Shown here piece by piece: positions 3,487 to 63,690 of a stretch of DNA of 64,000 nt. The position numbers and the translations under genes were made by a program. Position 1 is the stretch's first letter. Each line of letters starts with the position of its first letter. The notes beneath the pieces were generated by a model, which had not been told where the DNA came from, ran no database searches, and saw nothing but the letters and a program-made list of their open reading frames with translations. Source of the stretch: Candidatus Nomurabacteria bacterium. GTDB lineage: Bacteria; Patescibacteriota; Minisyncoccia; Phycocordibacterales; UBA9973. The stretch is taken from contig JAHFNS010000002.1 in NCBI GenBank assembly GCA_023267215.1, positions 32,149 to 96,148 on the forward strand, in the 5' to 3' direction.

Positions 3487-6400
3487 TTATTCCCCCTCTT
3501 CGGGAGAAGCTATTCTACTTTTAAATCCAGTTCCAGCCGGAATTAATCGTCCAATAATAACATTCTCTTTTAATCCTCTCAAAGAATCTATTCCGCCTTT
3601 GACTGCGTTTTCAATCAAAACACGGTTGGTATTTTGGAAGGAAGCAGCAGAGAGCCAACTCTTAGTACGAAGTGAAACTTCTGTAATACCGAGCACTATT
3701 ATTTCTGCTTTCGCTTCTTTTAAGTTTATTTTAACAACTCTATTATTTTCTTCAATAAAGGCTGTATTTTCAACAATGTCTCCAGCAGAGAAATTGGTTT
3801 CACCAGCATCTTTTATTTTTCTTCGTGAGAACATTTGACGAATAATTATCTCTGTATGTTTTCTGGAAATTGAAGCACTTTGAAGTTCATAAACTTTGTT
3901 TATTTCTCGAATTATATATTCTTCAACCAACTCTTTGCCTCCAAATTTGAATATTTCAGCAATATCAGCAGACCCATCTGTAAGCAATTCCCCTTTCTTT
4001 ACTTTTTGTCCTACCTTGACTATCGGAGTTCTTCTGAATTGCACTAAATATTCTATTTCGTTATCTTTTCCATCAACCTTACTATCAGAAAGTACTCTAA
4101 TTATTTTTTCTTTTCCATCTCTATCTTTTATTTCAAAAACTTCTCCGTCAGTTTCTGAAACTAAGGCTGGATTCTTAGGAATACGTCTTTCAAAAATTTC
4201 TTCAATACGAGGCAAACCAGTAGTGATATCTGTTCCTGCCACACCTCCAGCATGGAATGTTCGAAGAGTAAGCTGGGTACCTGGTTCACCGATAGCTTGA
4301 GCCGCGATAATACCGACAGCTTCTCCTAAATCAACTAGATGGTTTCTACCCAAATCTAATCCATAACACATTTGACAAATACCATGTGTAGTATGACAAG
4401 TTAGAGGAGAGCGAACAAATACTTCTTCAAAACCCATTCCTTCGATATTATAAGCTTCTTCTTTTGTAATTAAAAATCCTTTTTTATAAACAATTTTACC
4501 ATCTTTATCTTTCAAGTCAGCTGCCAATACTCGTCCACGAAGATTTTTAGAAAGAGGGATTTCAATTCCAGAAATATTTTCTCGAGTAACGATTTTTCCT
4601 TCTTTGGTACCACAATCTTCTTCTGTAATGACCACATCTTGTGCCACATCAACCAAACGACGTGTCAAATATCCGGCTTTAGCAGTATTTAAGGCAGTAT
4701 CTGATGCACCCTTACGAGCACCATGAGTCGTCACGAAATATTCTATAGGAGAGAGACCTTCATGATAAGAAGGAATAATTGGAAATTCTAATGTTCTACC
4801 TTGGTTGTTTTGAATAAGCCCTTTCATTCCCGTCATCTGAATTAGTTGCCCCATCGAACCTCTAGCCCCAGAAGTAAGTAAATCAAAAGCTGAACCATTT
4901 TTATCTAAAGACTGAGGTAATATTTTTTCTAACTCTTTTTTAGCTTGAGTCCAAATTTCAATAATCTTTTGATATCTTTCTTCTTCTGATAAAAGACCAT
5001 CACTCCATTCAGAAATTATTTTTTCTTCTTGTTTTTTACCTTCCTCAACTATTTTTGTTTTTTCTTTCGGTACTTTTATATTATCTAATCCCCAAGTCGT
5101 ACCGGAAATAGTTGAATAATAAAAACCGAAATTTTTTATCTTGTCTAAAATGGGAGGAGTTTTGTCCACTCCATAGTGCATGATTAATTCATCTACTAAA
5201 GATGATAATCTCTTAACATTCATTTCATCACTAACATAAGAAAAATCATTTGGTAAGATGCTATTAAAAAGTAGCTTACCAACAGAGGTGTCAAAAACCC
5301 CTTCATTGAATTTTTTATATTTATGAGAATCTGTGGCCAATACTTTTATTTTTGCCCTTAAAGATACAATGCCATATTCATAAGCTGTTATGGCTGTGTT
5401 GGGACTTGAAAAATATTTCCCTTCTCCTTCTTCTCCGTCGACAGATTTCGTCATCCAATAAGAACCAAGGACTATATCTCGGCTGGGATGCACTATTGGT
5501 TCTCCATTTTGAGGTTTTAATAAATTTTTATTAGCTGCCATTAATTCTTTCGCTTCAGATTGTGCTTCTTCTAAGAGAGGTAAATATACAGCCATCTGGT
5601 CTCCATCGAAGTCAGCATTAAATGCGGCACAAACAAGTGGATGCACTTGAATAGCATTTCCTTCAATCAAAATAGGATTGAAAGCTTGAATACCTAGACG
5701 ATGCAAAGTCGGTGCACGGTTCAAGAGAACATATTTCCCTTTTATCACTTCTTCAAGCATTGCCCAAACTTCTGGTGTACGTTCTTCAATAAGTTTATTT
5801 GCTCCACGAATATTAAAAGCAAGTTCTGCTTGTAAAATTTTTGAAATAACAAATGGTCTAAAAAGTTCAAGAGCCATATGTTTTGGCAAACCACATTGAT
5901 TGAGTTTGAGCTCAGGTCCAACAACAATGACAGAACGACCAGAATAGTCTACTCGTTTACCGAGTAAATTCTGACGGAATAAACCTTGCTTTGATTTTAA
6001 ATTATCTGAAAGAGATTTAAGTGGTCGTTTTTGAGATTGACTCATCGCTGCACTATCGTTTTGCTTAGCAATAGAGTTATCTATAAGAGCATCGACAGCT
6101 TCCTGGATTATTCTTTTTTCATTTCTTAAAATAACATCTGGCGCATTTATTTCCTTCAATTTTTTCAAACGGTTATTTCTATTGATTACTCGACGATAAA
6201 GATCATTTAAATCACTGGTAGCATGACGACCTCCATCGAGAGCAACCATCGGACGTAATACTGGAGGAATAACAGGAATAACTGTCAAAAACATCCATTC
6301 TGGTCTTATCCCGGCATAGGTCATAGCACGAATTAAAGAAAGTCTCTTTTGTAATTTTTCTTTTTCGACAATGCTTGTTTTTTCAAGCATTTTTTCAGTA

Positions 6401-11035: not shown

Positions 11036-11485
11036 TTAGGCACTCGAGGGCCCCGAAAGGGGTCCGTTTTCGTTTGTTTTTATAAGGTTAATAACCTTGT
11101 TTTCTATTTCTTTAAAATTATTTTCATTAATGCGAGCAACACGACGAATTAAACGCTTTCCACTTAATAATCTTAATTGAGATAAAATAACCATAGAAAT
11201 TTTTTCTTCAATTTCATTATTTTCATTTTTCATACGTAATACAAGTTTATGGTGGAAAGAATCATTCTTTTCTTTTGAAGTAAGTGGTAATCCCCAAAAC
11301 ATCCCCTTGTTGAACTTTCTAAAAACTAAAACGGGACGTTCATATTTTTCATTTTTACCATCTTGTTCAAAACCAACATTTTCTCCAAGCGAACACCACC
11401 ATATTTCTCTATCACGAAAAAGAATTTCTTTACCAGAATTTTCAATATCAGATTTTATACCATGCCATTTTAAATAATCTTTCAC
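11036..11485 (-). CDS. MazF/PemK (EndoA)-like toxin-fold protein, no adjacent antitoxin
   Basis: REIWWCSLGENVGFEQDGK..ERPVLVF aligns to [25 protein letters not shown] of EndoA/MazF; C-terminal SQLRLL..RL region matches too; overlaps trmD stop by 4 nt; GC hairpin (CCCCGAAAGGGG) inside 3' end. Confidence 0.5.
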   Translation of the reverse strand: MKDYLKWHGIKSDIENSGKEILFRDREIWWCSLGENVGFEQDGKNEKYERPVLVFRKFNKGMFWGLPLTSKEKNDSFHHKLVLRMKNENNEIEEKISMVILSQLRLLSGKRLIRRVARINENNFKEIENKVINLIKTNENGPLSGPSSA

Positions 11486-12621: not shown

Positions 12622-12650
12622 TTTTAGCTTTCAACCCCGTCGCTCGCGAG
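12622..12650. terminator. GC-rich hairpin CGTCGCTCGCGAGCGACAG downstream of rpsP
   Basis: near-perfect palindrome read directly; U-tract is on the plus strand (TCTTTTCTTTTATTTC) so orientation ambiguous. Confidence 0.3.
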
Positions 12651-12672
12651 CGACAGGGTCAACTCTTTTCTT

Positions 12673-17295: not shown

Positions 17296-17325
17296 CCCCC
17301 ATATACGCCATGACTGATATGAGGG
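17296..17325. repeat. degenerate copy of CCATGG-family palindrome (CCCCCATATACGCCATG-AC-TGATATGAGGG)
   Basis: left arm identical to arm of perfect 30-mer at 17743; right arm partially complementary. Confidence 0.6.
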
Positions 17326-17337
17326 AATAAAAAATAA

Positions 17338-17784
17338 TTATACTTTTTTATTATTAATGTAAGATTTAGCTAATTTAAATGTCTTAAAGTTATCCCCTAT
17401 TTTTATTTCCTTCAAATAATCTAAAAAATCTTTTGGCAATGGAGAAGGTCCAACCCAAACACTTTTTTGAATCATTATGTAATTAAATTTTATTAGTTGT
17501 CTTCGAAACCAATCTCTCTCTTTTTTCTTGTCAGCTGGAATGTCATACATCACAATTAAATTTTTAGAAGAATCTTTATTAAAAGGAGAAATAAAAGTAA
17601 CATTATAAAAAGTTCTTTTTCTATTCTTGATTTTTGCACGACTTTCCCTACCTTTTGAAAAAATTGGGATGCCAAAAGAACTAACTCTCATCCCTTTATA
17701 ATAAAATATCTTTTGCGAACTCATAGATAAATTATACACCAATTCCCCCATATACGCCATGGCGTATATGGGGGAACATAACAA
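17338..17784 (-). CDS. PaaX-like C-terminal-domain protein (Cas2-like fold), N-terminus probably over-extended through palindrome
   Basis: LIVMYDIPADKKKERDWFRRQLIKFNYIMIQKSVWVGP resembles the ..IFDIPE..R..LR..L...GF..LQKSVWISP signature of PaaX-like regulators common in CPR; annotated start is TTG inside the 30-nt palindrome. Confidence 0.4.
   Translation of the reverse strand: MLCSPIYAMAYMGELVYNLSMSSQKIFYYKGMRVSSFGIPIFSKGRESRAKIKNRKRTFYNVTFISPFNKDSSKNLIVMYDIPADKKKERDWFRRQLIKFNYIMIQKSVWVGPSPLPKDFLDYLKEIKIGDNFKTFKLAKSYINNKKV
17743..17772. repeat. perfect 30-nt palindrome CCCCCATATACGCCATGGCGTATATGGGGG overlapping 5' end of PaaX-like ORF
   Basis: read directly; self-complementary; shares core TACGCCATGGCGTA with palindromes at 35943 and 53761. 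Confidence 0.9.
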
Positions 17785-35500: not shown

Positions 35501-36283
35501 TTACCATATTTTGGTTCTTTTTATTGAAAAAGCTAAAGACGGTATTTTGAGCTTATTTCCTAATGTGTTTGCAATAGTCCTCACATACGTACCACTACTA
35601 CATTTAGTCTTAAATTTAGCTACTAAGAATTCTCTTTTATTTTCTGTTTGTAATTCTTTCTTCCAAATCTTTAAAATTTCATCCTGCCTGAAATTCCCTT
35701 TCACTTTTTTAATCCTCTTTTCTATATTTTCAAACAATTTCTTGTTGTCTGTGCTTCTTATTTTCTCTAATTTTAATTTTTTAATAAAAATTTTTCTTTC
35801 TGGAACTTCCACCTCTTCCCCATTTCTGGCATAAGCAAACAATGGTTTGCCTTTTACTGTCTTCGAAGAATACATGGGGTACTTCTGCACACTTTCACCT
35901 AAAAAACTTTTTAAATTCTTTTTTATTTCCCCTTCTAAATTTTTTACATCTACGCCATGGCGTAGATTGGTTTTTGTTATATTCTGTTTATTTATCACCT
36001 TCCCTAAAATGTCATAAGTATCAGTACTAAAACCAAAAAGTACTTCGAATTCATATTCTTTCTCTTTCATCAAATATTTTTCTTTGTTTTTTGTTTCCTC
36101 TTCTGTAAGAATTAATAAAACCCCGCTTGCCATAGGATCCAGTCTACCAGCATAAGTCATGGGCACATCTAAATACTTAGGATTTTTCTTGCGAAAATTC
36201 TCCATCGCTTCAAGTGGAGTTTCTCCTTCTTTTTTATTTAAAGTAATTACTTTTTTCACAAGATAATAAATTTCAGAAACCAA
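35501..36283 (-). CDS. truB: tRNA pseudouridine55 synthase TruB carrying in-frame palindrome insertion
   Basis: catalytic GRLDPMASGVLLI motif; insertion encodes LRHGVDV. Confidence 0.85.
   Translation of the reverse strand: MVSEIYYLVKKVITLNKKEGETPLEAMENFRKKNPKYLDVPMTYAGRLDPMASGVLLILTEEETKNKEKYLMKEKEYEFEVLFGFSTDTYDILGKVINKQNITKTNLRHGVDVKNLEGEIKKNLKSFLGESVQKYPMYSSKTVKGKPLFAYARNGEEVEVPERKIFIKKLKLEKIRSTDNKKLFENIEKRIKKVKGNFRQDEILKIWKKELQTENKREFLVAKFKTKCSSGTYVRTIANTLGNKLKIPSLAFSIKRTKIW
35943..35962. repeat. 20-nt perfect palindrome ATCTACGCCATGGCGTAGAT inside truB
   Basis: read directly; identical 20-mer inside comF (53768-53787). Confidence 0.9.
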
Positions 36284-46495: not shown

Positions 46496-46828
46496 TTAGT
46501 AATAAAATATTTCATTTAGTGAAAAGAAAATTTCTTTCAATTGTTCACCCGTAATTTCTCCAATTTTTTTAAACATTCTTTCTTTAGCAATAGTACGTAT
46601 CTGAAAAGTAATAATCTCAGAGTCTTTGCTTAATTTATTTATTTTATTTTTATCAAGTTTTACACAACCAGCATAATTTTTAATCTTGCTTGAAATAGGA
46701 CAAATAATGAAAACACCTAAATTTTTATTCATTGTGTTTCCAGAGATAATAACCACTGGTCTCTTCCCTTTTTGTTCTTTGCCTCTAGCTGGATTAAGAT
46801 TCGCCAAATAAATATCTTTTTGCAACAT
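46496..46828 (-). CDS. mazF: MazF/PemK-family endoribonuclease toxin
   Basis: DIYLANLNPARGKEQKGKRPVVIIS canonical PemK N-terminus. Confidence 0.75.
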   Translation of the reverse strand: MLQKDIYLANLNPARGKEQKGKRPVVIISGNTMNKNLGVFIICPISSKIKNYAGCVKLDKNKINKLSKDSEIITFQIRTIAKERMFKKIGEITGEQLKEIFFSLNEIFYY

Positions 46829-53358: not shown

Positions 53359-54054
53359 ATGGAAATATTAAACACCATACTAAACATAGTTTTTCCTGTG
53401 AATTGCGTTTCTTGTGATAAAAGAGGTTCAGATTTGTGTACAAAATGCCTTTCAGAATCTCCCACTGCCGAAAGAGAAAGCGCTAATTGGATATTTCCCT
53501 TTTTTGACTATCGCCATATACCCATTAAAAAATCCATTTGGCTTTTAAAATATAAAGGTAAAAAAAGACTGGCAAGTATTTTTGCTGAAGTTATGTATGG
53601 TAGAATTATAGAAGAATTGTCTGATTTAAGTGTTTTAAATAATTTTCGAGAACCCATTTTAATTCCTATTCCCCTCTCCAAAAAGAGATACAGAGAACGT
53701 GGCTACAATCAAGCTGAACTAATTTGTAAAGAATTAATAAAAATAGATAAAAATAATAAAGCTGCACATCTACGCCATGGCGTAGATGTGCAGCTTGTGA
53801 ATAATTTTATTTTTAAAAAAAATGTTCTAGCAAAAATAAAAGAGACAGAGCATCAAGCCAATATTAAAGAGCGACATAATAGATTAAAAAATTTGATTGA
53901 TTCTTTCGCCATAAAAAATCCTGAATTAATAAAAAACAAAAATATAATTTTAATAGATGATGTGACAACCACCGGCACCACTTTGACTGAAGCAAAAAAA
54001 ATATTAAAACAAAATGGTGCCAGAAAAGTAATCGCTTTCACAATCGCACATTAG
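53359..54054 (+). CDS. comF: ComF-family protein (ComFC-like phosphoribosyltransferase-domain competence protein) carrying palindrome insertion
   Basis: N-terminal CVSCD..CTKC Zn-finger, PRTase motif IILIDDVTTTGTTL; divergent from pilM. Confidence 0.8.
   Translation: MEILNTILNIVFPVNCVSCDKRGSDLCTKCLSESPTAERESANWIFPFFDYRHIPIKKSIWLLKYKGKKRLASIFAEVMYGRIIEELSDLSVLNNFREPILIPIPLSKKRYRERGYNQAELICKELIKIDKNNKAAHLRHGVDVQLVNNFIFKKNVLAKIKETEHQANIKERHNRLKNLIDSFAIKNPELIKNKNIILIDDVTTTGTTLTEAKKILKQNGARKVIAFTIAH
53761..53794. repeat. 34-nt perfect palindrome GCTGCACATCTACGCCATGGCGTAGATGTGCAGC inside comF
   Basis: read directly; inner 20 nt identical to truB palindrome; encodes AAHLRHGVDVQL. Confidence 0.9.
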
Positions 54055-57954: not shown

Positions 57955-59001
57955 TTAAATTTTGTTTTCTTTTATTTTTCTTTTCAATTTATACGCATTC
58001 CCATGACTAAGCATCCCCAAATAAGATTGTATAGTATTTGGTTTGGGATTTTTGTTAATATTCCTAAACATCCTTCTTTTTGTAGCAGTGCGTAATACTC
58101 TATGCTTCGGAAAATGCACCCAACCAAGAAAATCTACACCGGAGTAGATTGTTTTAATAAATACTTTATCTGGGTGCATATTTAACTTTAGTTTAGTCTC
58201 TAAAAATTCTTTCATTACTTTCAGTGTGTTTTCTAAATATTCTTTATCGTCTGAAAGAACAACAAAATCATCTGCATATCTAATGTAATATTTTACTTTC
58301 AGTTTATGTTTTATATATTGATCAAATTCATTCATATAGATATTTACTAAAAGTTGAGAAGTTAAATTACCAAGTGGTAAACCTTTCAATGACACATTCT
58401 CTGCCATGGCAGAAAGTGTGTCATTTTGTATATATACACTATCACTGATATCTGTATTTGTGTGGAAGCTATTTATTATTTGTTCTAATAACCAGATAAT
58501 GTCTTCATCTTTTACATGCTTTGTCAGAATATCTTTCAAAATATTGTGATCTATGTTTGCAAAGAATTTTCTAATATCGCATTTTAATACAAAACAAGTT
58601 TTAGCGCTGTTTTTAGAAACAATTCTTATCATTTGCCTAAATCTGTTTATAGATCTATGAGTTCCTTTTTCTATTCTGCAAGAATATGAATCATAAATAA
58701 ATTTACTATCAAAATAACCATAGAATTCTTGATAAATTAAGTGATGAAGTAATCTATCTCGCACCATCGCCTTATGAATTTGTCTCGGTTTTGGGTCAGA
58801 AATATTAAAAGCTTTATAACCACCATGCACATAAGTTTTGTTTTTTAAATCAATATATAAATCAAAAATATTATCCATCAATTTAGATTGAAACAATATC
58901 ACATCATTTTTCTTTTTCTTGTCATGTAAAAACTCCTGCCAAGCTTGAAGTAATTTTTCTATAGTTATGATATTATCGTATGTATGAATAAATCGTCTCA
59001 T
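57955..59001 (-). CDS. diversity-generating retroelement reverse transcriptase
   Basis: RT motifs incl. YADDFVV; DGR-specific LPLGNLTSQLLVNIYMNEFD motif; C-terminal SYLGMLSHGN. Confidence 0.9.
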   Translation of the reverse strand: MRRFIHTYDNIITIEKLLQAWQEFLHDKKKKNDVILFQSKLMDNIFDLYIDLKNKTYVHGGYKAFNISDPKPRQIHKAMVRDRLLHHLIYQEFYGYFDSKFIYDSYSCRIEKGTHRSINRFRQMIRIVSKNSAKTCFVLKCDIRKFFANIDHNILKDILTKHVKDEDIIWLLEQIINSFHTNTDISDSVYIQNDTLSAMAENVSLKGLPLGNLTSQLLVNIYMNEFDQYIKHKLKVKYYIRYADDFVVLSDDKEYLENTLKVMKEFLETKLKLNMHPDKVFIKTIYSGVDFLGWVHFPKHRVLRTATKRRMFRNINKNPKPNTIQSYLGMLSHGNAYKLKRKIKENKI

Positions 59002-59002
59002 A

Positions 59003-59374
59003 TTGGTATCACCCCCCCCCGCAGCGCCTTCAGCGCTTCTAAAAGCAAAAATCGCTTACTCTTTTTGGTTTAAAATATATAATGATTTTCCAAAGGCACA
59101 TCGCTATATTTTAGGTGAAAAAATTGGAGATTATTTTCTGGCTCTTTTAGAAAACATTTTTATTTCAATATATCTACCACCAGAACAAAAAATACAGAGG
59201 CTCACAATAGCTATTTCTAAACTAGATGGTGTAAAGTTCTTCTTACAAATTGCTTGGGAAAACAAATGTATTCCTAGTGAAAAATATTCTACTCTTTCAG
59301 AACTTTTAAATGAAATCGGCAGAATGCTGGGTGGTTGGAAAAAAGGACTTGAAAAGAAAACCCCTCAGAAATAA
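59003..59374 (+). CDS. avd: Avd-like accessory variability determinant (TIGR02436 four-helix-bundle family), opposite strand to RT/TR/VR; TTG start 1 nt from RT start codon
   Basis: KIYNDFPKAHRYILGEKI..LLENI and IPSEKYSTLSELLNEIGRMLGGW match the four-helix-bundle family pattern (..fPkeEky.l.sQi.. / yiseeeYeel.eel.eisrMLngL). Confidence 0.65.
   Translation: MVSPPPAAPSALLKAKIAYSFWFKIYNDFPKAHRYILGEKIGDYFLALLENIFISIYLPPEQKIQRLTIAISKLDGVKFFLQIAWENKCIPSEKYSTLSELLNEIGRMLGGWKKGLEKKTPQK
59012..59020. repeat. C9 homopolymer tract at 5' end of avd ORF / RT-avd divergent junction
   Basis: read directly (ACCCCCCCCCG); encodes PPP after TTG start. Confidence 0.9.
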
Positions 59375-59390
59375 TCCAAGGAGAAAGATA

Positions 59391-59508
59391 TTGTTTCTGA
59401 AGCAGACACCATTGCCAGCATTCCACTCATTGTCGGGATTGACCTTGTTCACGTTGACGTTGAGCTGACCATCATCGTTGCGATACGCGTTAAAGCGGTA
59501 CAAATTGT
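59391..59508 (-). repeat. DGR template repeat (TR), sense on minus strand
   Basis: 118-nt repeat vs 59820-59937 at constant offset 429; all 15 mismatches have A on the minus strand in this copy. Confidence 0.85.
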
Positions 59509-59818
59509 GGAAATAATCATCTTTTTCACTGCCAGCCTAAGCGCAATTAAATGCCAGAGACTGTGCTGTATTTTATTTGGGACATAAAAGTCCACCAATT
59601 ATTTCCACCAACATTTTCTTTTTTGTTTTAGAAATATAACTGCCCTCTTATGTAAGCCTTGGCCGACACAACTCTCACAAATTATTTTTCTAGAATCCCC
59701 ACTCTCAAGCCGTGACCGAAGAGTTATTAAGAATTCCTTCTTTATTATATATTAAAAAAAGAAAAAGGGCCTAAGACACAAAGTATCTAAGGACCCTTTT
59801 TTATTAAGAAACATAGTT

Positions 59819-60496
59819 TCAGTTGCTGAAGCAGACACCATTGCCAGCACTCCACTCATAGTCGGGATTGACCCTGCCCACGTCGACGTAGAGCTGACCA
59901 CCATCGATGCGATACGCGCGAAAGCGGTACAAAGTGTCAACACCATCAACTTTAAAGTAGACGATGACACCTGTTCCTTTTATATCAACTTCACCGAAGA
60001 GAATAACTTTACAGATTATAGAAAGTCCTTCAAGATAAGAATAGACTTTTTTAATTCCAGTATTTTCAGCTTCTTCAAGAATCTGTTTGTGAGTTAAGTT
60101 GGGAATAAACCGATACACTACAGTAATAAAGCCTTTAGGTATATCAAGAACCGTTTTTCCGTTAAAGTAATTCCAAAGATCTTTATCAATGAACGGAACG
60201 ACATTTTTTAATCTAGCTTCTCTTTCGAGAACTGATTTTAGAAAAGTCATCACTGTATCTTCACTGACTGTAAATAACTCTGGACTTTTAGGAATAGTAA
60301 GGGTTTTTGTTTTTTGAAAAAGTTTTGAAACAAATTCTTTGACTCCCAAAAATTCAAGAAGTTCAGGTTTTGTAAAGTGATTAACCTTGTTATGCGCCCT
60401 GAAACGCAAGTCATTATTTGCAACATTCTGACGAATTCTCTTTATGAGACTGTCAACGCGCTTGTTGCCACGTGCGGTGTTGTTTTTGTTTGGCAT
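59819..60496 (-). CDS. DGR target protein (225 aa, basic N-terminus, no signal peptide) with C-terminal VR
   Basis: last ~38 codons lie in VR (..YRFRAYRIDGGQLYVDVGRVNPDYEWSAGNGVCFSN); imperfect hairpin plus T-run immediately downstream (59765-59802). Confidence 0.8.
   Translation of the reverse strand: MPNKNNTARGNKRVDSLIKRIRQNVANNDLRFRAHNKVNHFTKPELLEFLGVKEFVSKLFQKTKTLTIPKSPELFTVSEDTVMTFLKSVLEREARLKNVVPFIDKDLWNYFNGKTVLDIPKGFITVVYRFIPNLTHKQILEEAENTGIKKVYSYLEGLSIICKVILFGEVDIKGTGVIVYFKVDGVDTLYRFRAYRIDGGQLYVDVGRVNPDYEWSAGNGVCFSN
59820..59937 (-). repeat. DGR variable repeat (VR) at 3' end of target gene
   Basis: cognate of TR; substitutions only at TR-adenine positions (N->R/I/Y/D/G/S, D->G, K->R at protein level). 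Confidence 0.85.
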
Positions 60497-62293: not shown

Positions 62294-62393
62294 ACCTCAC
62301 CCCTAACCCCTCTCCAAAATTTTAATTTTGGAGAGGGGAAAATCTGCTTAATAGCAGATTGGGGTGAGGTAAAGTCCCCCTGATAAGGGGGAT
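62294..62393 (+). repeat. 100-nt GC-rich multi-stem structured element, copy 1 (additionally enclosed by 11-bp outer stem ACAACCCCCTA/TAGGGGGTTGT at 62262-62405)
   Basis: P1 ACCTCACCCC/GGGGTGAGGT encloses 15-bp hairpin CCCCTCTCCAAAATT/AATTTTGGAGAGGGG and 7-bp hairpin AATCTGC/GCAGATT; 3' hairpin TCCCCC-TGATAA-GGGGGA. Confidence 0.85.
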
Positions 62394-62446
62394 TTAGGGG
62401 GTTGTATTAAAATACAGCTTTGTTAATATATATGTAATAAAATTTT

Positions 62447-63070
62447 ATGACTTTCATATCTTTAATTTTAACTATTCTAAGTTCTCTTATATTTTTAGGA
62501 TTTTTTATTTTATATAATAAAAATATTTTAAATGGTTCTATAAAACCAAACATTGTCACTTGGAGTCTTTTTGCTTTAATTACTCTTATCAATTCACTCA
62601 CCTATATTTCTTTTACTCATGACATTTTTAAAGGGGCACTCGCTTTTACAGATTGTTTCACTTGTATTATCATTACTTCTTTAATTCTTTTTAAAAATCA
62701 AAATTTTAAAATAAACACTTCAGAAAAAGTAATAATTCTTCTATCTATTTTATCTTTGATAATTTGGTATATATTACATTCAGCAGTATATGCAAATCTA
62801 TTATTACAACCAGCTTATATTTTAGCTTTTATTCCAACTCTTAAAAATGTATGGAAAAATCCAAAGGATGAAAGCACATTGGTATGGCTTATGTGGGCAG
62901 TTTCTTTTATTTTAACCATCATGGTAATAATAATCCGTTGGGAAAACAATTGGGCAGATTTAATTAACCCATTAATTGCATTAATTCTTCACACGAGTGT
63001 CGGTTTACTTGCATTACGTAAAATTAAAATCCAAAATACAACCTCACCCCTAACCCCTCTCCAAAATTAA
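62447..63070 (+). CDS. hypothetical 6-TM membrane protein bracketed by structured repeats (C-terminus runs into copy 2)
   Basis: hydrophobicity pattern; last 9 codons encoded by repeat. Confidence 0.4.
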   Translation: MTFISLILTILSSLIFLGFFILYNKNILNGSIKPNIVTWSLFALITLINSLTYISFTHDIFKGALAFTDCFTCIIITSLILFKNQNFKINTSEKVIILLSILSLIIWYILHSAVYANLLLQPAYILAFIPTLKNVWKNPKDESTLVWLMWAVSFILTIMVIIIRWENNWADLINPLIALILHTSVGLLALRKIKIQNTTSPLTPLQN

Positions 63071-63140
63071 AATTTTGGAGAGGGGAAAATCTGCTTAATA
63101 GCAGATTGGGGTGAGGTAAAGTCCCCCTGATAAGGGGGAT
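63041..63140 (+). repeat. 100-nt structured element, copy 2 (99/100 identical to copy 1)
   Basis: single substitution (T->A in hairpin loop) vs copy 1; flanks differ. Confidence 0.85.
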
Positions 63141-63153
63141 CTAGGGAGTTTAT

Positions 63154-63690
63154 TTAATTTATTTTTCCTATCGTAACTTCTGACTTCGGGTCGAAAGCAT
63201 CAGGGTCAAGTTTTAAATGTGAAATATATTTTCTCTGTACTACGAAACCCCCTAAGAATTTCAAAAAATCTTCTGTTTTATCTTGCTCCCCTTTTTCTTC
63301 CATATGTTCGAGTGGGTGTGCTTCGGGAGTATATTCAAAATGCCCACAAATTTCTCCGTCTTTATAAACTCGCAAATGATATTGGTCTTCAAAATCTGTC
63401 AGTTTTCTCCAACTCAAAACCTGATCTTCATCTATCCAAGCAATGAAATGATTACCAAAGCCCCATTTTTCAAAAAGATGTTTCTTTAATCCTTCTAGGG
63501 TCTTATGAGGTGCGAGCCAGCCGATGTGATATTTTTGCCTACCCTTTTTATGCCAAATAACACCTATTTTCAATAGAAATTTACGAACTGGTAAAAAGAA
63601 AGAGTATATAAAACCCCACGTTTTTTGTTTAATTTCATCCATTATTGTCATATGAGATATGATAGCATAATTTTCAAATTGACAGAACAT
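63154..63690 (-). CDS. hypothetical protein
   Basis: 178 aa, His/aromatic-rich; no confident family assignment. Confidence 0.3.
   Translation of the reverse strand: MFCQFENYAIISHMTIMDEIKQKTWGFIYSFFLPVRKFLLKIGVIWHKKGRQKYHIGWLAPHKTLEGLKKHLFEKWGFGNHFIAWIDEDQVLSWRKLTDFEDQYHLRVYKDGEICGHFEYTPEAHPLEHMEEKGEQDKTEDFLKFLGGFVVQRKYISHLKLDPDAFDPKSEVTIGKIN

Follow-up and report, generated by a model that had tools for sequence, protein, structure and literature searches.

Short GC-rich palindromes centred on CCATGG recur in the window, a 64,000-nt stretch of a Paceibacteria/Nomurabacteria chromosome whose GC content is 32%. Two of them bracket a small gene that an earlier note had called PaaX-like, and others lie in frame inside truB and comF. 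What ties the palindromes to that gene, and how did copies come to rest within unrelated enzymes?

Palindromes of the window and the gene they bracket

Four related elements with a common core had been described, and all four are present. The core TACGCCATGGCGTA gives three exact matches in the window and one with three mismatches, compared with 0.34 matches expected from shuffles; 0/100 shuffles reached four or more, which rules out a chance origin of the repeats. The window holds eight CCATGG sites, four of which are centres of long palindromes, and its perfect palindromes centred on this hexamer number three (34, 20 and 38 nt). The features are, by position:

17296..17325, no strand: downstream copy, starting 12 nt past the stop codon of the Cas2-like gene
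17338..17724, minus strand: orphan Cas2-like gene, 128 aa, with a PaaX_M/Cas2 domain (residues 56-119) after a conserved basic N-terminal arm
17731..17736, minus strand: -10 box TATAAT of the Cas2-like gene, 6 nt before the ATG
17743..17776, no strand: promoter-side copy, perfect 34-nt palindrome TTCCCCCATATACGCCATGGCGTATATGGGGGAA, its centre 23 nt 5' of the -10 box, at about -35
35501-36283, minus strand: truB, host of the 20-nt solo copy
35948..35967, no strand: solo copy ATCTACGCCATGGCGTAGAT in truB, encoding NLRHGVD in frame in a length-variable loop
53359-54054, plus strand: comF, host of the 38-nt solo copy
53759..53796, no strand: solo copy in comF, perfect 38-nt palindrome, in frame, encoding AAHLRHGVDVQL
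58388..58425, no strand: fifth palindrome, imperfect, 38 nt, CCATGG-centred, in frame in a DGR reverse-transcriptase gene

Some coordinates had to be revised. The 30-mer placed at 17743-17772 is a genuine palindrome that lies at 17745-17774, within a perfect stretch of 34 nt (17743-17776), and the truB 20-mer put at 35943-35962 is present at 35948-35967; the comF 34-mer was correctly located at 53761-53794, its perfect symmetry running on to 38 nt. The copy beyond the stop codon combines an exact and a degenerate half: its distal half, CCCCCATATACGCCATG, is the exact 17-nt left half of the promoter copy, and its gene-proximal half, ACTGATATGAGGG, resembles a CAGC-type half-site. The truB and comF copies do share a reading frame and both add LRHGVDV; the base at ±8 is C in these two, in contrast to A at the unit, whose protein has Thr38. 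The fifth palindrome, overlooked by the earlier note, has the core TCTGCCATGGCAGA / CTCTGCCATGGCAGA and represents a related second type. As single strands, the perfect copies of 34, 20 and 38 nt fold at -17, -6.8 and -21 kcal/mol (z-scores -7.8, -4.9 and -9.5), and the downstream copy folds weakly (-3.8 kcal/mol). An Rfam scan of the window returned one tRNA and no RNA family matching the palindromes.

The bracketed gene had been given as 480 bp and as overlapped by the palindrome at its start. The likely gene is instead 387 bp, from the ATG at 17724 to the stop at 17338, and the overlap concerns only the start of a mechanical TTG ORF. Pfam analysis of the 128-aa protein revealed PaaX_M (PF20803, E=5.3e-13, 49 bits against a cut-off of 24) and CRISPR_Cas2 (PF09827, E=3e-7), and matched neither PaaX_C nor an N-terminal winged helix, the first 55 residues being the basic arm. 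No match to Y1_Tnp (HUH/Y1 transposase) was found, and Pfam, profile and fold all identify the protein as Cas2-like. In profile comparison the YDIP motif, which carries the Asp ending beta1 and is invariant in 41 family sequences, aligns with FDLP of type II Cas2, as does the QKSVW strand with its type II counterpart; Asp, Glu and Arg residues are also invariant in the family, a pattern that would fit a nuclease too. The AF2 model, of moderate quality (overall pLDDT 62, N-terminal arm below 50), has a core (residues 54-118, pLDDT 66-81) of Cas2 ferredoxin-like topology, for which Foldseek returned Cas2 chains as top PDB matches, with Cas2, PaaX and VapD among the best fold matches. The description as PaaX-like therefore stands for the Cas2-like middle domain and fails for a PaaX regulator in the strict sense, the other PaaX domains being undetected.

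The family comprises 1809 clusters, publicly annotated as Cas2. Residues 35-55 of the short proteins match the linker of a longer paralogue combining a winged helix-turn-helix (wHTH) with the Cas2-like domain. Distant paralogues of that longer kind carry palindromes of their own, on both sides (L086), upstream (L008) or downstream (L061), and the one in L008 is a second-type palindrome, as at 58388-58425, about 40 nt 5' of the start codon. A CRISPR system in the window was rejected, as it contains no CRISPR array and Pfam found no Cas1 among the 60 window ORFs scanned. Neither paa/phenylacetate genes in the window nor, among window ORFs, restriction or methylase genes near the Cas2-like gene were found. 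A literature search covering the sequences, PaaX with Cas2-like domains, orphan Cas2 and CPR palindromes returned no description of such a system.

Placement of the palindromes at the gene

The search beyond the window found further genomic copies of a family spread through a whole lineage of tiny uncultured bacteria: the 20-nt core occurs in at least 119 genome stretches, and among the matches listed every pair of palindromes 406-501 bp apart brackets a Cas2-like homologue. As an unbiased test of this association, 80 loci were picked by protein similarity alone; a site lies upstream of essentially all of these genes and downstream of most. Family genes encode about 125 aa, the elements span 20-46 nt, and in nearly every member the upstream copy falls at -35 in the promoter of that gene. 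Of 102 homologous units, 93% have a -10-like hexamer (TAnnnT) that begins at a distance of 22-23 nt from the centre of the palindrome, compared with 1-3% of 224 solo-site sides, and the distance from centre to ATG is 34-36 nt in 51/61 units. A generic promoter scan misses the TATAAT promoter of the window because the palindrome fills the -35 position. With its -10 box so close to the ATG, the gene is predicted to give a leaderless or near-leaderless mRNA.

The downstream site, present in 58/72 unbiased units, is often asymmetric, and the stop codon is often part of the site itself (GCC ATG GCG TAA). Hybrid sites made asymmetric by two mismatches are frequent beside the gene, and asymmetric flanking sites are mostly in direct rather than inverted orientation relative to each other. 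The order smc - gene - PGA_cap holds through a whole clade, in which SMC is 65-80% identical; the location of the unit differs from clade to clade, and its neighbours in other genomes are housekeeping genes. In L027 the smc-PGA_cap interval offers no usable empty site, since a foreign GC-rich insert occupies the gap. The proposal that 17296-17775 is a miniature mobile unit bounded by terminal inverted repeats is contradicted by the clade-wide synteny, by sites that form part of the promoter and of the stop codon and by their mostly direct orientation, and a mobile gene cassette with inverted-repeat ends was ruled out on the same synteny and orientation. Phage origin was also rejected, as neither palindrome nor gene was found in IMG/VR. 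The alternative offered for the bracketing pair, an operator function for the PaaX-like protein, gains strong support as a prediction from this promoter geometry and from the covariation described below.

Covariation of protein and site

The residue directly after the Cas2 YDIP motif (residue 64) covaries with the palindrome centre (position ±2). Proteins beside CCATGG centres (60 tips) have His (45), Ser (6), Thr (4), Tyr (2), Gln (1), Phe (1) or Asp (1) at this position, and those beside CTATAG centres have Glu (22) or Asp (3); the mutual information is 0.84 bit, and 84/85 tree tips obey the rule. On a tree built with the covarying columns left out, the site changed 11 times, and the residue class and the combined character changed 12 times each; because the tree rests on 125-aa proteins, the figure of 11 switches is an approximate one, and conservative grouping still gives about 6. 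L133 (Glu, TATA) and L140 (His, CATG) differ in this way with proteins 86% identical. A second link joins the N-terminal arm to position ±8: Arg at column 61 occurs in 20/23 cases with C:G at ±8 and in 0/57 with A/T. In the window protein the covarying positions are Ala64 and Thr38. Two paralogues on one contig (L036) each have their own cognate site.

Across copies, position ±8 is symmetric in 99% and ±2 in 90%. The residue changes agree with simple chemistry, in which hydrogen-bond donors face G and acceptors face A. Methylation-driven deamination was rejected as the cause of the change from CCATGG to CTATAG, because it leaves the matched His-to-Glu change of the protein unexplained. The covariation indicates that the protein very probably reads the palindrome as a symmetric dimer and autoregulates, with binding, geometry and autoregulation all predicted from sequence comparison.

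From the family, its placement, its covariation with the protein and the insertion of the dispersed copies treated below, we consider it probable that the orphan Cas2-like protein has its cognate DNA site in the palindrome beside its gene, and that the solo copies are dispersed palindromes of operator type. The ancestors of the protein would be PaaX-type regulators, of which it would retain the Cas2-like dimerisation domain, with a short basic arm in place of the winged helix. A symmetric homodimer would sit with its two-fold axis at the CCATGG centre, the residue after the beta1 YDIP reading base pair ±2 and a residue of the N-terminal arm reading base pair ±8. Since one site lies at -35 of the gene's own, apparently leaderless promoter, the protein would control its own synthesis, more likely by repression; a second site would lie on or just past the stop codon. 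Sequence-specific DNA reading is, to our knowledge, not a property of Cas2; as this short protein lacks the DNA-binding winged helix of PaaX, the task would fall to its Cas2-like domain, for which there would be no precedent.

Dispersed copies, rival readings and known systems

Alignment with orthologues bore out the claim that the copies in truB and comF are insertions specific to the lineage, in frame and in length-variable loops. Thermotoga maritima TruB has an 11-residue gap at the palindrome position, and most of 120 close TruB homologues are without the palindrome-coded residues; likewise, the palindrome is absent from 17 ComF homologues whose loop has the minimal length of 16 aa, and the window comF differs from empty-site ComF DNA by a 42-nt insertion holding the entire 38-nt palindrome. 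Both loops are repeated insertion spots for several hairpin families, the ComF loop showing tandem, split and decayed copies, and the repeated insertions include tandem and nested copies. The insertions relative to empty ComF sites, of 42 nt and 24 nt, lie at AAT repeats, where a target-site duplication is illegible; the element is itself a palindrome.

Of the non-flanking copies, 30/86 lie inside ORFs, and 42/50 ORF-covered copies are in one frame; we take the hosts of intragenic copies to be TruB, ComF, Dus, Fmt, DHFR, RsmI, the CCA enzyme, MnmA, RecR, IscS and TsaD. Solo copies are about 19-fold enriched between genes, with 25% between convergent genes compared with a background of 13%, and many fill tiny gaps between same-strand genes. 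Their density is low (7 in 416 kb, about 1 per 60 kb), and an estimate from partial genome data gives about 10 copies per genome. A regulon of promoter operators was rejected, as solo sites are without a -10 box at the gene's fixed spacing.

Solo copies in one genome have no arms in common and are often unmatched to the unit's specificity, and ComF copies do not track the specificity of the unit that accompanies them in their genome. Solo copies and unit agree in centre type in about 11 cases and disagree in about 5, so some solo copies may still be bound and functional. Palindrome-coded residues are conserved to the same degree as their flanks in one ComF clade, a pattern compatible both with selection on the DNA and with its absence. 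Past ±10 the arms are unconserved, yet they pair in about 50% of copies compared with a background of about 30%, and one ComF copy carries a symmetric A>G / T>C change; the arms are apparently kept or made symmetric by a process at the DNA level, probably hairpin-templated correction or extension. The solo copies, truB and comF included, would have entered by insertion and persisted in permissive places, either intergenic or in frame within variable loops, mostly as relics rather than regulatory sites.

The same repeats could also be read as the products of an enzyme. Here the Cas2-like protein would be an active, site-specific nuclease that nicks or cuts the palindrome, whether in duplex, cruciform or hairpin form, and so mobilises or copies it, the gene-flanking copies being ends or master copies, as in REP/RAYT systems; we regard this as unlikely. 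The flanking of the gene by cognate palindromes recalls RAYT genes beside REPs, the beta1 Asp and several charged residues are invariant, and the specificity residue adjoins that Asp. Repeated insertion into the same loops with tandem and nested copies, the varying location of the unit between clades and the tendency of site type to agree within one genome point the same way. Against a nuclease stand the low copy number, the mismatched specificities and unshared arms of solo copies of one genome, the stable synteny of the unit, the locking of the upstream site to the promoter, the illegible target-site duplication at the AAT repeats and the lack of an integrase or transposase partner among the window ORFs. 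That a Cas2-fold dimer recognises and cuts or nicks its own palindrome, driving repeat spread and homogenisation as a functional analogue of RAYT/REP, seems to us rather improbable.

RAYT genes are always flanked by REPs (PMC2817692), and the RAYT gene is single-copy and vertically inherited, with compensatory stem changes and lineage-specific variants of REPs (PMC2817692; PMC3116915). Our gene, likewise single-copy and vertically inherited, lies between two copies of a short palindrome dispersed in the genome, whose stems are also preserved by compensatory changes and whose variants are also specific to lineages. The systems differ in that the protein has a Cas2 fold instead of HUH/Y1 (IS200/IS605-like), that copies number about 10 per genome (partial data) instead of hundreds (>100) of extragenic ones, that a third of the non-flanking copies are intragenic and that the flanking site also serves as part of a promoter. 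A conserved GTAG/CGTC head beyond the stem is missing, and GTAG is confined to the C variant, where it belongs to the palindrome itself.

A role at the RNA level is quite doubtful. The palindromes would be RNA hairpins, and the Cas2/VapD-like protein an endoribonuclease or RNA binder processing or stabilising mRNAs, its own included. Some Cas2 and VapD proteins are endoribonucleases, and VapD is among the fold matches; the many solo copies in tiny gaps between same-strand genes and the downstream copy overlapping the gene's stop codon would also suit such a role. However, the upstream copy sits 5' of the -10 box and is therefore left untranscribed by the gene's own promoter. The covarying ±2 bases would lie in the loop of the hairpin, which gives no cause for a symmetric double change, two-mismatch asymmetric hybrid sites are common at the gene, and a two-fold symmetric reader suits duplex DNA and not a hairpin.

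Generic structural signals at gene ends (bidirectional terminators, supercoiling or replication elements) without a specific protein link are highly improbable: the intergenic and convergent-gap enrichment and the stable hairpins fit them, but the near-universal, position-locked link to one gene family, the in-frame copies inside genes and the protein-site covariation contradict them, and intrinsic terminators were rejected as no T tract follows the stems (no T bias beside the arms of 144 copies, no terminator-like site called at the window copies).

With the palindrome as cognate site of a Cas2-like DNA reader, the nearest regulator is E. coli PaaX (PDB 8A39: wHTH, Cas2-like middle and C-terminal domain), which has the Cas2-like domain in common with our protein and likewise a palindromic site at its own promoter; the longer paralogues of related genomes retain the wHTH, with palindromes adjoining. 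PaaX differs in having about 300 aa against 128 aa, with wHTH and C-terminal domains that are undetected here. In our family, moreover, the residues that set specificity are located in the Cas2-like domain and the basic arm, the neighbourhood has no phenylacetate genes, and site copies are dispersed, some within genes. The closest Cas2 proteins, those of type II, share the ferredoxin-like fold, the beta1 Asp, the QKSVW strand and an association with palindromic repeats, whereas here there is no cas1 or CRISPR array, an N-terminal extension is present, and the repeats stand 406-501 bp apart with the gene in between. Controller (C) proteins of restriction-modification systems are small dimers that bind palindromic C-boxes at their own promoter and rapidly switch between orthogonal specificities; unlike them, our protein is not of HTH fold, its gene has neither restriction nor methylase genes as neighbours, and its site copies are dispersed.

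The likeness to Rickettsia palindromic elements (RPEs) was aptly drawn for the in-frame insertion. RPEs are palindromic repeats in frame in unrelated housekeeping genes, in apparently tolerant regions (PMC10969869). Both kinds enter unrelated protein genes in frame with no transposase known; the present elements are set apart by size and host (20-46 nt in Patescibacteria, about 100-150 bp in Rickettsia), by a cognate protein gene and by being mostly intergenic.

These minimal genomes carry several small GC-rich hairpin families that enter core enzymes in frame, as in Rickettsia. Such insertions affect gene calling, with starts set on the ATG of CCATGG, as well as protein alignment and quality control of MAGs. 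Patescibacteria are mostly without CRISPR, and our reading, if true, would give a concrete role to their stand-alone 'Cas2' genes, annotated there in more than 1,800 protein clusters. If the protein were an enzyme, its closest relatives being type II Cas2 and its partners palindromic repeats, it could be a relic or offshoot informing the tie between Cas2 and CRISPR repeats. If it is a regulator, residue 64 to ±2 and residue 38 to ±8 would constitute a two-position recognition code, the first case known to us of base-specific DNA recognition by a Cas2-fold domain. With its repeated fast switching of specificity and its orthogonal paralogues in one genome, it would offer a compact natural model for the co-evolution of protein and DNA.

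Palindromes and an orphan Cas2-like gene in the window

Judged by the names given to its TruB homologues, the window belongs to a Patescibacteria (Paceibacteria/Nomurabacteria-like) chromosome; it is AT-rich, at about 32% GC, and carries the core genes rpoD, dnaG, rpoC, rpoB, RNase R, rnc-smc, gyrB, pheST, truB and ligA, a type IV pilus cluster, comF and a diversity-generating retroelement (DGR). There are three exact matches to the core TACGCCATGGCGTA and one further match with three mismatches, where shuffles predict 0.34. All four palindromic elements described in the earlier note are present, although the truB copy had been placed 5 nt off its true position. The palindrome finding is real and larger than first reported, and takes in a fifth palindrome, also centred on CCATGG but differing in its core.

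Features of the window
11036-11485: PemK/MazF-like toxin gene, between trmD and a NUDIX gene
12639-12654: isolated perfect 16-nt palindrome GTCGCTCGCGAGCGAC (75% GC), unrelated in sequence to the CCATGG family, between KhpA-like and S16 genes
17296-17325: degenerate copy, one 17-nt half identical to that of the 34-mer, the other degenerate
17338-17724, minus: orphan Cas2-like (PaaX_M) gene
17736-17731, minus: -10 box TATAAT, 6 nt before the ATG
17743-17776: perfect palindrome, 34 nt
35948-35967: perfect palindrome, 20 nt, in truB
46496-46828: second PemK/MazF-like toxin gene, within the type IV pilus cluster
53759-53796: perfect palindrome, 38 nt, in comF
57955-60496: complete DGR
57955-59001, minus: DGR reverse transcriptase
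58388-58425: fifth palindrome, within the reverse-transcriptase gene
59003-59374, plus: DGR bAvd-like ORF
59393-59524: DGR template repeat
59822-59953: DGR variable repeat, at the 3' end of ORF 59819-60496 (minus, no Pfam match)
62294-62410 and 63041-63157: two copies, 94% identical, of a GC-rich multi-hairpin element

The DGR repeats are 86% identical, with 15 of 19 mismatches at plus-strand T (minus-strand A), and the orientation of Avd looks unusual. The multi-hairpin element (~115 nt; ACCTCACCCC..CCCCTCTCC-loop-GGAGAGGGG..GGGGTGAGGT plus further hairpins) had no match in Rfam; its two copies flank a 207-aa membrane ORF, and elements of its type are inserted, with the frame kept, in the ComF gene at L206 (10442-10466 plus flanks), from a different genome, and in a PaaX-like gene (L061).

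Scanning one genome per species with ATMTACGCYATRGCGTAKAT matched at least 119 stretches, which makes the family lineage-wide; among the matches listed, almost all are Nomurabacteria/Paceibacterota MAGs, and about 17 stretches hold two copies 406-501 bp apart, every such pair bracketing a homologue of the window's small ORF (52-86% identity). This ORF (128 aa from the ATG at 17724) matches only PaaX_M and CRISPR_Cas2 in Pfam, and its family comprises 1809 protein clusters, named Cas2 or PaaX by their sources; the motifs YDIP, KERDW.RR and MIQKSVWVGPSPLP of the ORF are invariant. An AF2 model of moderate confidence (pLDDT 62) has Cas2 topology and is matched best by Cas2 chains, then by PaaX and VapD, and a profile search aligned the beta1 Asp to that of type II Cas2. 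No cas1, CRISPR array or transposase was found in the window, and neither gene nor palindrome is present in IMG/VR.

In more distant paralogues (185-215 aa), the Cas2-like domain is preceded by an N-terminal winged helix. One (L086) has palindromes of its own on both sides, a perfect one of 42 nt that stops 6 nt short of the ATG and, past the stop codon, a half-degenerate copy; another (L008) has a CTCTGCTATAGCAGAG-type palindrome about 40 nt upstream of the ATG, a type shared with the window's fifth palindrome; a third (L061) has a window-family copy immediately 3' of its stop. One winged-helix paralogue has a linker matching residues 35-55 of the short family, indicating that the short proteins are PaaX-type proteins which have lost the winged helix.

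Position of the sites and covariation with the protein

In an unbiased sample of 80 metagenomic loci, picked by protein similarity only, a CCATGG- or CTATAG-centred site lies upstream of essentially every gene, and most genes have another at their 3' end. Of 102 upstream sites, 93% have a -10-like hexamer whose first base is 22 or 23 nt from their centre, and the centre lies 34-36 nt from the ATG; given this fixed spacing, the upstream site stands at -35 in a promoter that is leaderless or nearly so. A generic promoter scan misses the window promoter because it has no -35 match. The downstream site often includes the last codons and stop (..S A M A stop, TCA GCC ATG GCG TAA) and is then asymmetric, ATATCAGCCATGGCGTAAAT. 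Public gene calls begin the window protein (P0121) at the palindrome ATG, 17760-17762 (140 aa, MAYMGE...), and several homologues are likewise extended N- or C-terminally into palindromes (..SAMA); the conserved -10 box favours the downstream ATG as the start.

The order smc, gene, PGA_cap is kept across one clade, in which SMC identity is only 65-80%, and in other clades the unit (gene plus flanking palindromes) lies elsewhere, for example beside HtpX/LemA or GatC/GatA. At one locus (L027, 3490-4960) the smc to PGA_cap interval lacks the gene and instead holds a GC-rich stretch of ~1.4 kb with an AbrB/SpoVT-like ORF; direct repeats of ~40 nt (GTATATACCAATC..CCCTAGGGA) bracket its 3' ~0.75 kb, the AbrB-like ORF lying just outside, and a solo palindrome (4915-4934) is directly beside the stretch.

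We grouped the units according to what the upstream site has at its centre, and set this against the residue directly following YDIP (column 87 of the alignment; the window has Ala64). Among 60 tips with CCATGG this residue is His in 45, Ser in 6, Thr in 4, Tyr in 2 and Gln, Phe and Asp in one each; among 25 with CTATAG it is Glu in 22 and Asp in 3 (mutual information 0.84 bit), and the rule holds in 84 of 85 tips. Hydrogen-bond donors opposite G and acceptors opposite A are chemically sensible. On the protein tree the two states intermingle, and for a tree built without the tested columns parsimony gave 11 changes of the site and 12 each of residue class and combined character, indicating that site and residue switch on the same branches. 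The protein at L133 (Glu, TATA) is 86% identical to that at L140 (His, CATG) and at most 66% to other TATA-type proteins. Likewise, Arg at column 61 (Thr38 in the window) accompanies C:G at ±8 from the centre in 20 of 23 cases and A/T in 0 of 57, including scattered lineages, and one 3.2-kb contig (L036) carries two paralogues, each with its own cognate site type.

Overlapping coding cannot explain this covariation, since the tested residues lie ~190 nt or more from either site. We conclude that direct reading of the palindrome by the Cas2-like protein is very probable. The two beta1 Asp residues of a Cas2 dimer are opposed at the interface, so that residue 64 would sit over the palindrome dyad. 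The symmetric double change at ±2, together with a site left untranscribed by the gene's own promoter, favours duplex DNA over an RNA hairpin as the target. The operator role which the earlier note had offered as an alternative is thus strongly supported for the pair around the gene, the upstream site being locked to the gene's promoter and covarying with the protein, and autoregulation of either sign appears reasonably likely.

Solo copies and their symmetry

We classified 146 strict copies: 53 flank the gene, 30 lie within ORFs, 56 between genes and 7 at a locus end. Solo copies are ~19-fold enriched between genes (the sequence is 91% coding) and show neither a -10 box at the unit's spacing nor a T tract; their density is 7 in 416 kb of sequence not selected for palindromes, roughly ten per genome. 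Of 50 copies covered by an ORF of at least 60 aa, 42 have the LRHGVD/LRYSVD frame, in host genes that include, by eye, Dus, Fmt, DHFR, RsmI, CCA enzyme, MnmA, RecR, IscS, TsaD, TruB and ComF. Translation bears out the earlier claim that the window's truB and comF copies share one frame relative to the palindrome and both encode LRHGVDV.

Alignment with orthologues places both copies as insertions in variable loops. At this point T. maritima TruB shows a gap of 11 residues, and the loop, usually 16-17 aa among 120 close homologues, reaches 23-26 aa in the three palindrome carriers. The same spot holds a CTATAG version in a relative (L001), a ATATACGCC version in L002 and unrelated hairpins in others (L004; an 'RQDL' hairpin). 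Among TruB genes of other lineages (L001, 156-941; L004, 1870-2664; further homologues) we noted in the loop a hairpin with a 9-bp stem and 7-nt loop encoding the recurrent 'RQDL' motif (TTGTGTTAG-GCAAGAT-CTAACACAA) and one with a 15-bp stem (ACCCCACTACGGAGG-AAACG-CCTCCGTAGTGGGGT); several homologues (P0059, P0043, P0087) carry long TruB insertions, seen as protein, with many GC-rich codons.

In ComF, 17 homologues have a minimal 16-aa loop and no site, 46 of 120 have the exact LR[HY][GS]VD motif, others have it decayed, in tandem (P0343) or centrally split (P0267, P0322), and nine have a different GC-rich multi-hairpin element. Against empty-site DNA (L207, L209), window comF has a 42-nt insertion holding the entire 38-nt palindrome, and L208 ComF has a 24-nt insertion at the same point; the junctions lie in AAT repeats, where no target duplication is readable. 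In one ComF (L205, 10398-10417) an in-frame insertion of 18 nt places a different GC-rich perfect palindrome, GCCTGCCTGCGCAGGCAGGC, at the centre of a decayed copy of the CCATGG palindrome, so that one palindrome sits within another. A gene at L208 (1211-1678) with a weak match to Pfam Y1_Tnp (IS200/IS605-type) adjoins the palindrome-carrying ComF there; DNA hairpins are what Y1 transposases act on.

Across assemblies, the centre types of solo copies and units agree in ~11 cases and disagree in ~5. The window unit has A at ±8 and Thr38, whereas both window solo copies have C at ±8. ComF copies do not follow the specificity of the unit on their own contig or in their own genome (match inferred): in L210 a CATG-centred copy accompanies a Glu/TATA unit, and in L211 a TATA-centred copy accompanies a CATG unit. 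We read most solo copies as insertion relics, an origin we consider probable; that the Cas2-like protein catalyses their spread is unlikely. The low-copy dispersed set behaves like REP/RPE-type insertions, in keeping with the likeness to Rickettsia palindromic elements first proposed.

Copies are symmetric at ±8 in 99% and at ±2 in 90%, whereas independent halves would give 64% and 50% (computed from base frequencies). Beyond ±10 the sequence is unconserved, yet as far out as ±17 roughly half of the copies have pairing arms (background ~30%). The longest perfect palindromes measure 46 nt, each locus having arms of its own; copies within genes nearly all consist of the 20-nt core only. At ±6 one ComF copy, itself at odds with the unit of its genome, has changed symmetrically (A>G / T>C). 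From these data we infer that some process acting on the DNA itself makes the copies symmetric, for instance template switching or correction templated by the hairpin, in addition to any selection by the Cas2-like protein.

We found no description of this system in the searchable literature. It is best described as a putative cognate pair of an orphan, PaaX-derived Cas2-like protein and a palindrome in its own promoter and 3' end. Contigs in which this Paceibacteria palindrome or gene occurs also turn up in MAGs named Francisella, Actinomycetota, Gammaproteobacteria, Oscillospiraceae and Burkholderiales (L009, L019, L021, L091, L094, L123), and many other carriers are labelled Saccharibacteria; such names probably stem from errors in binning or labelling, and as a lineage marker the palindrome could be of use.
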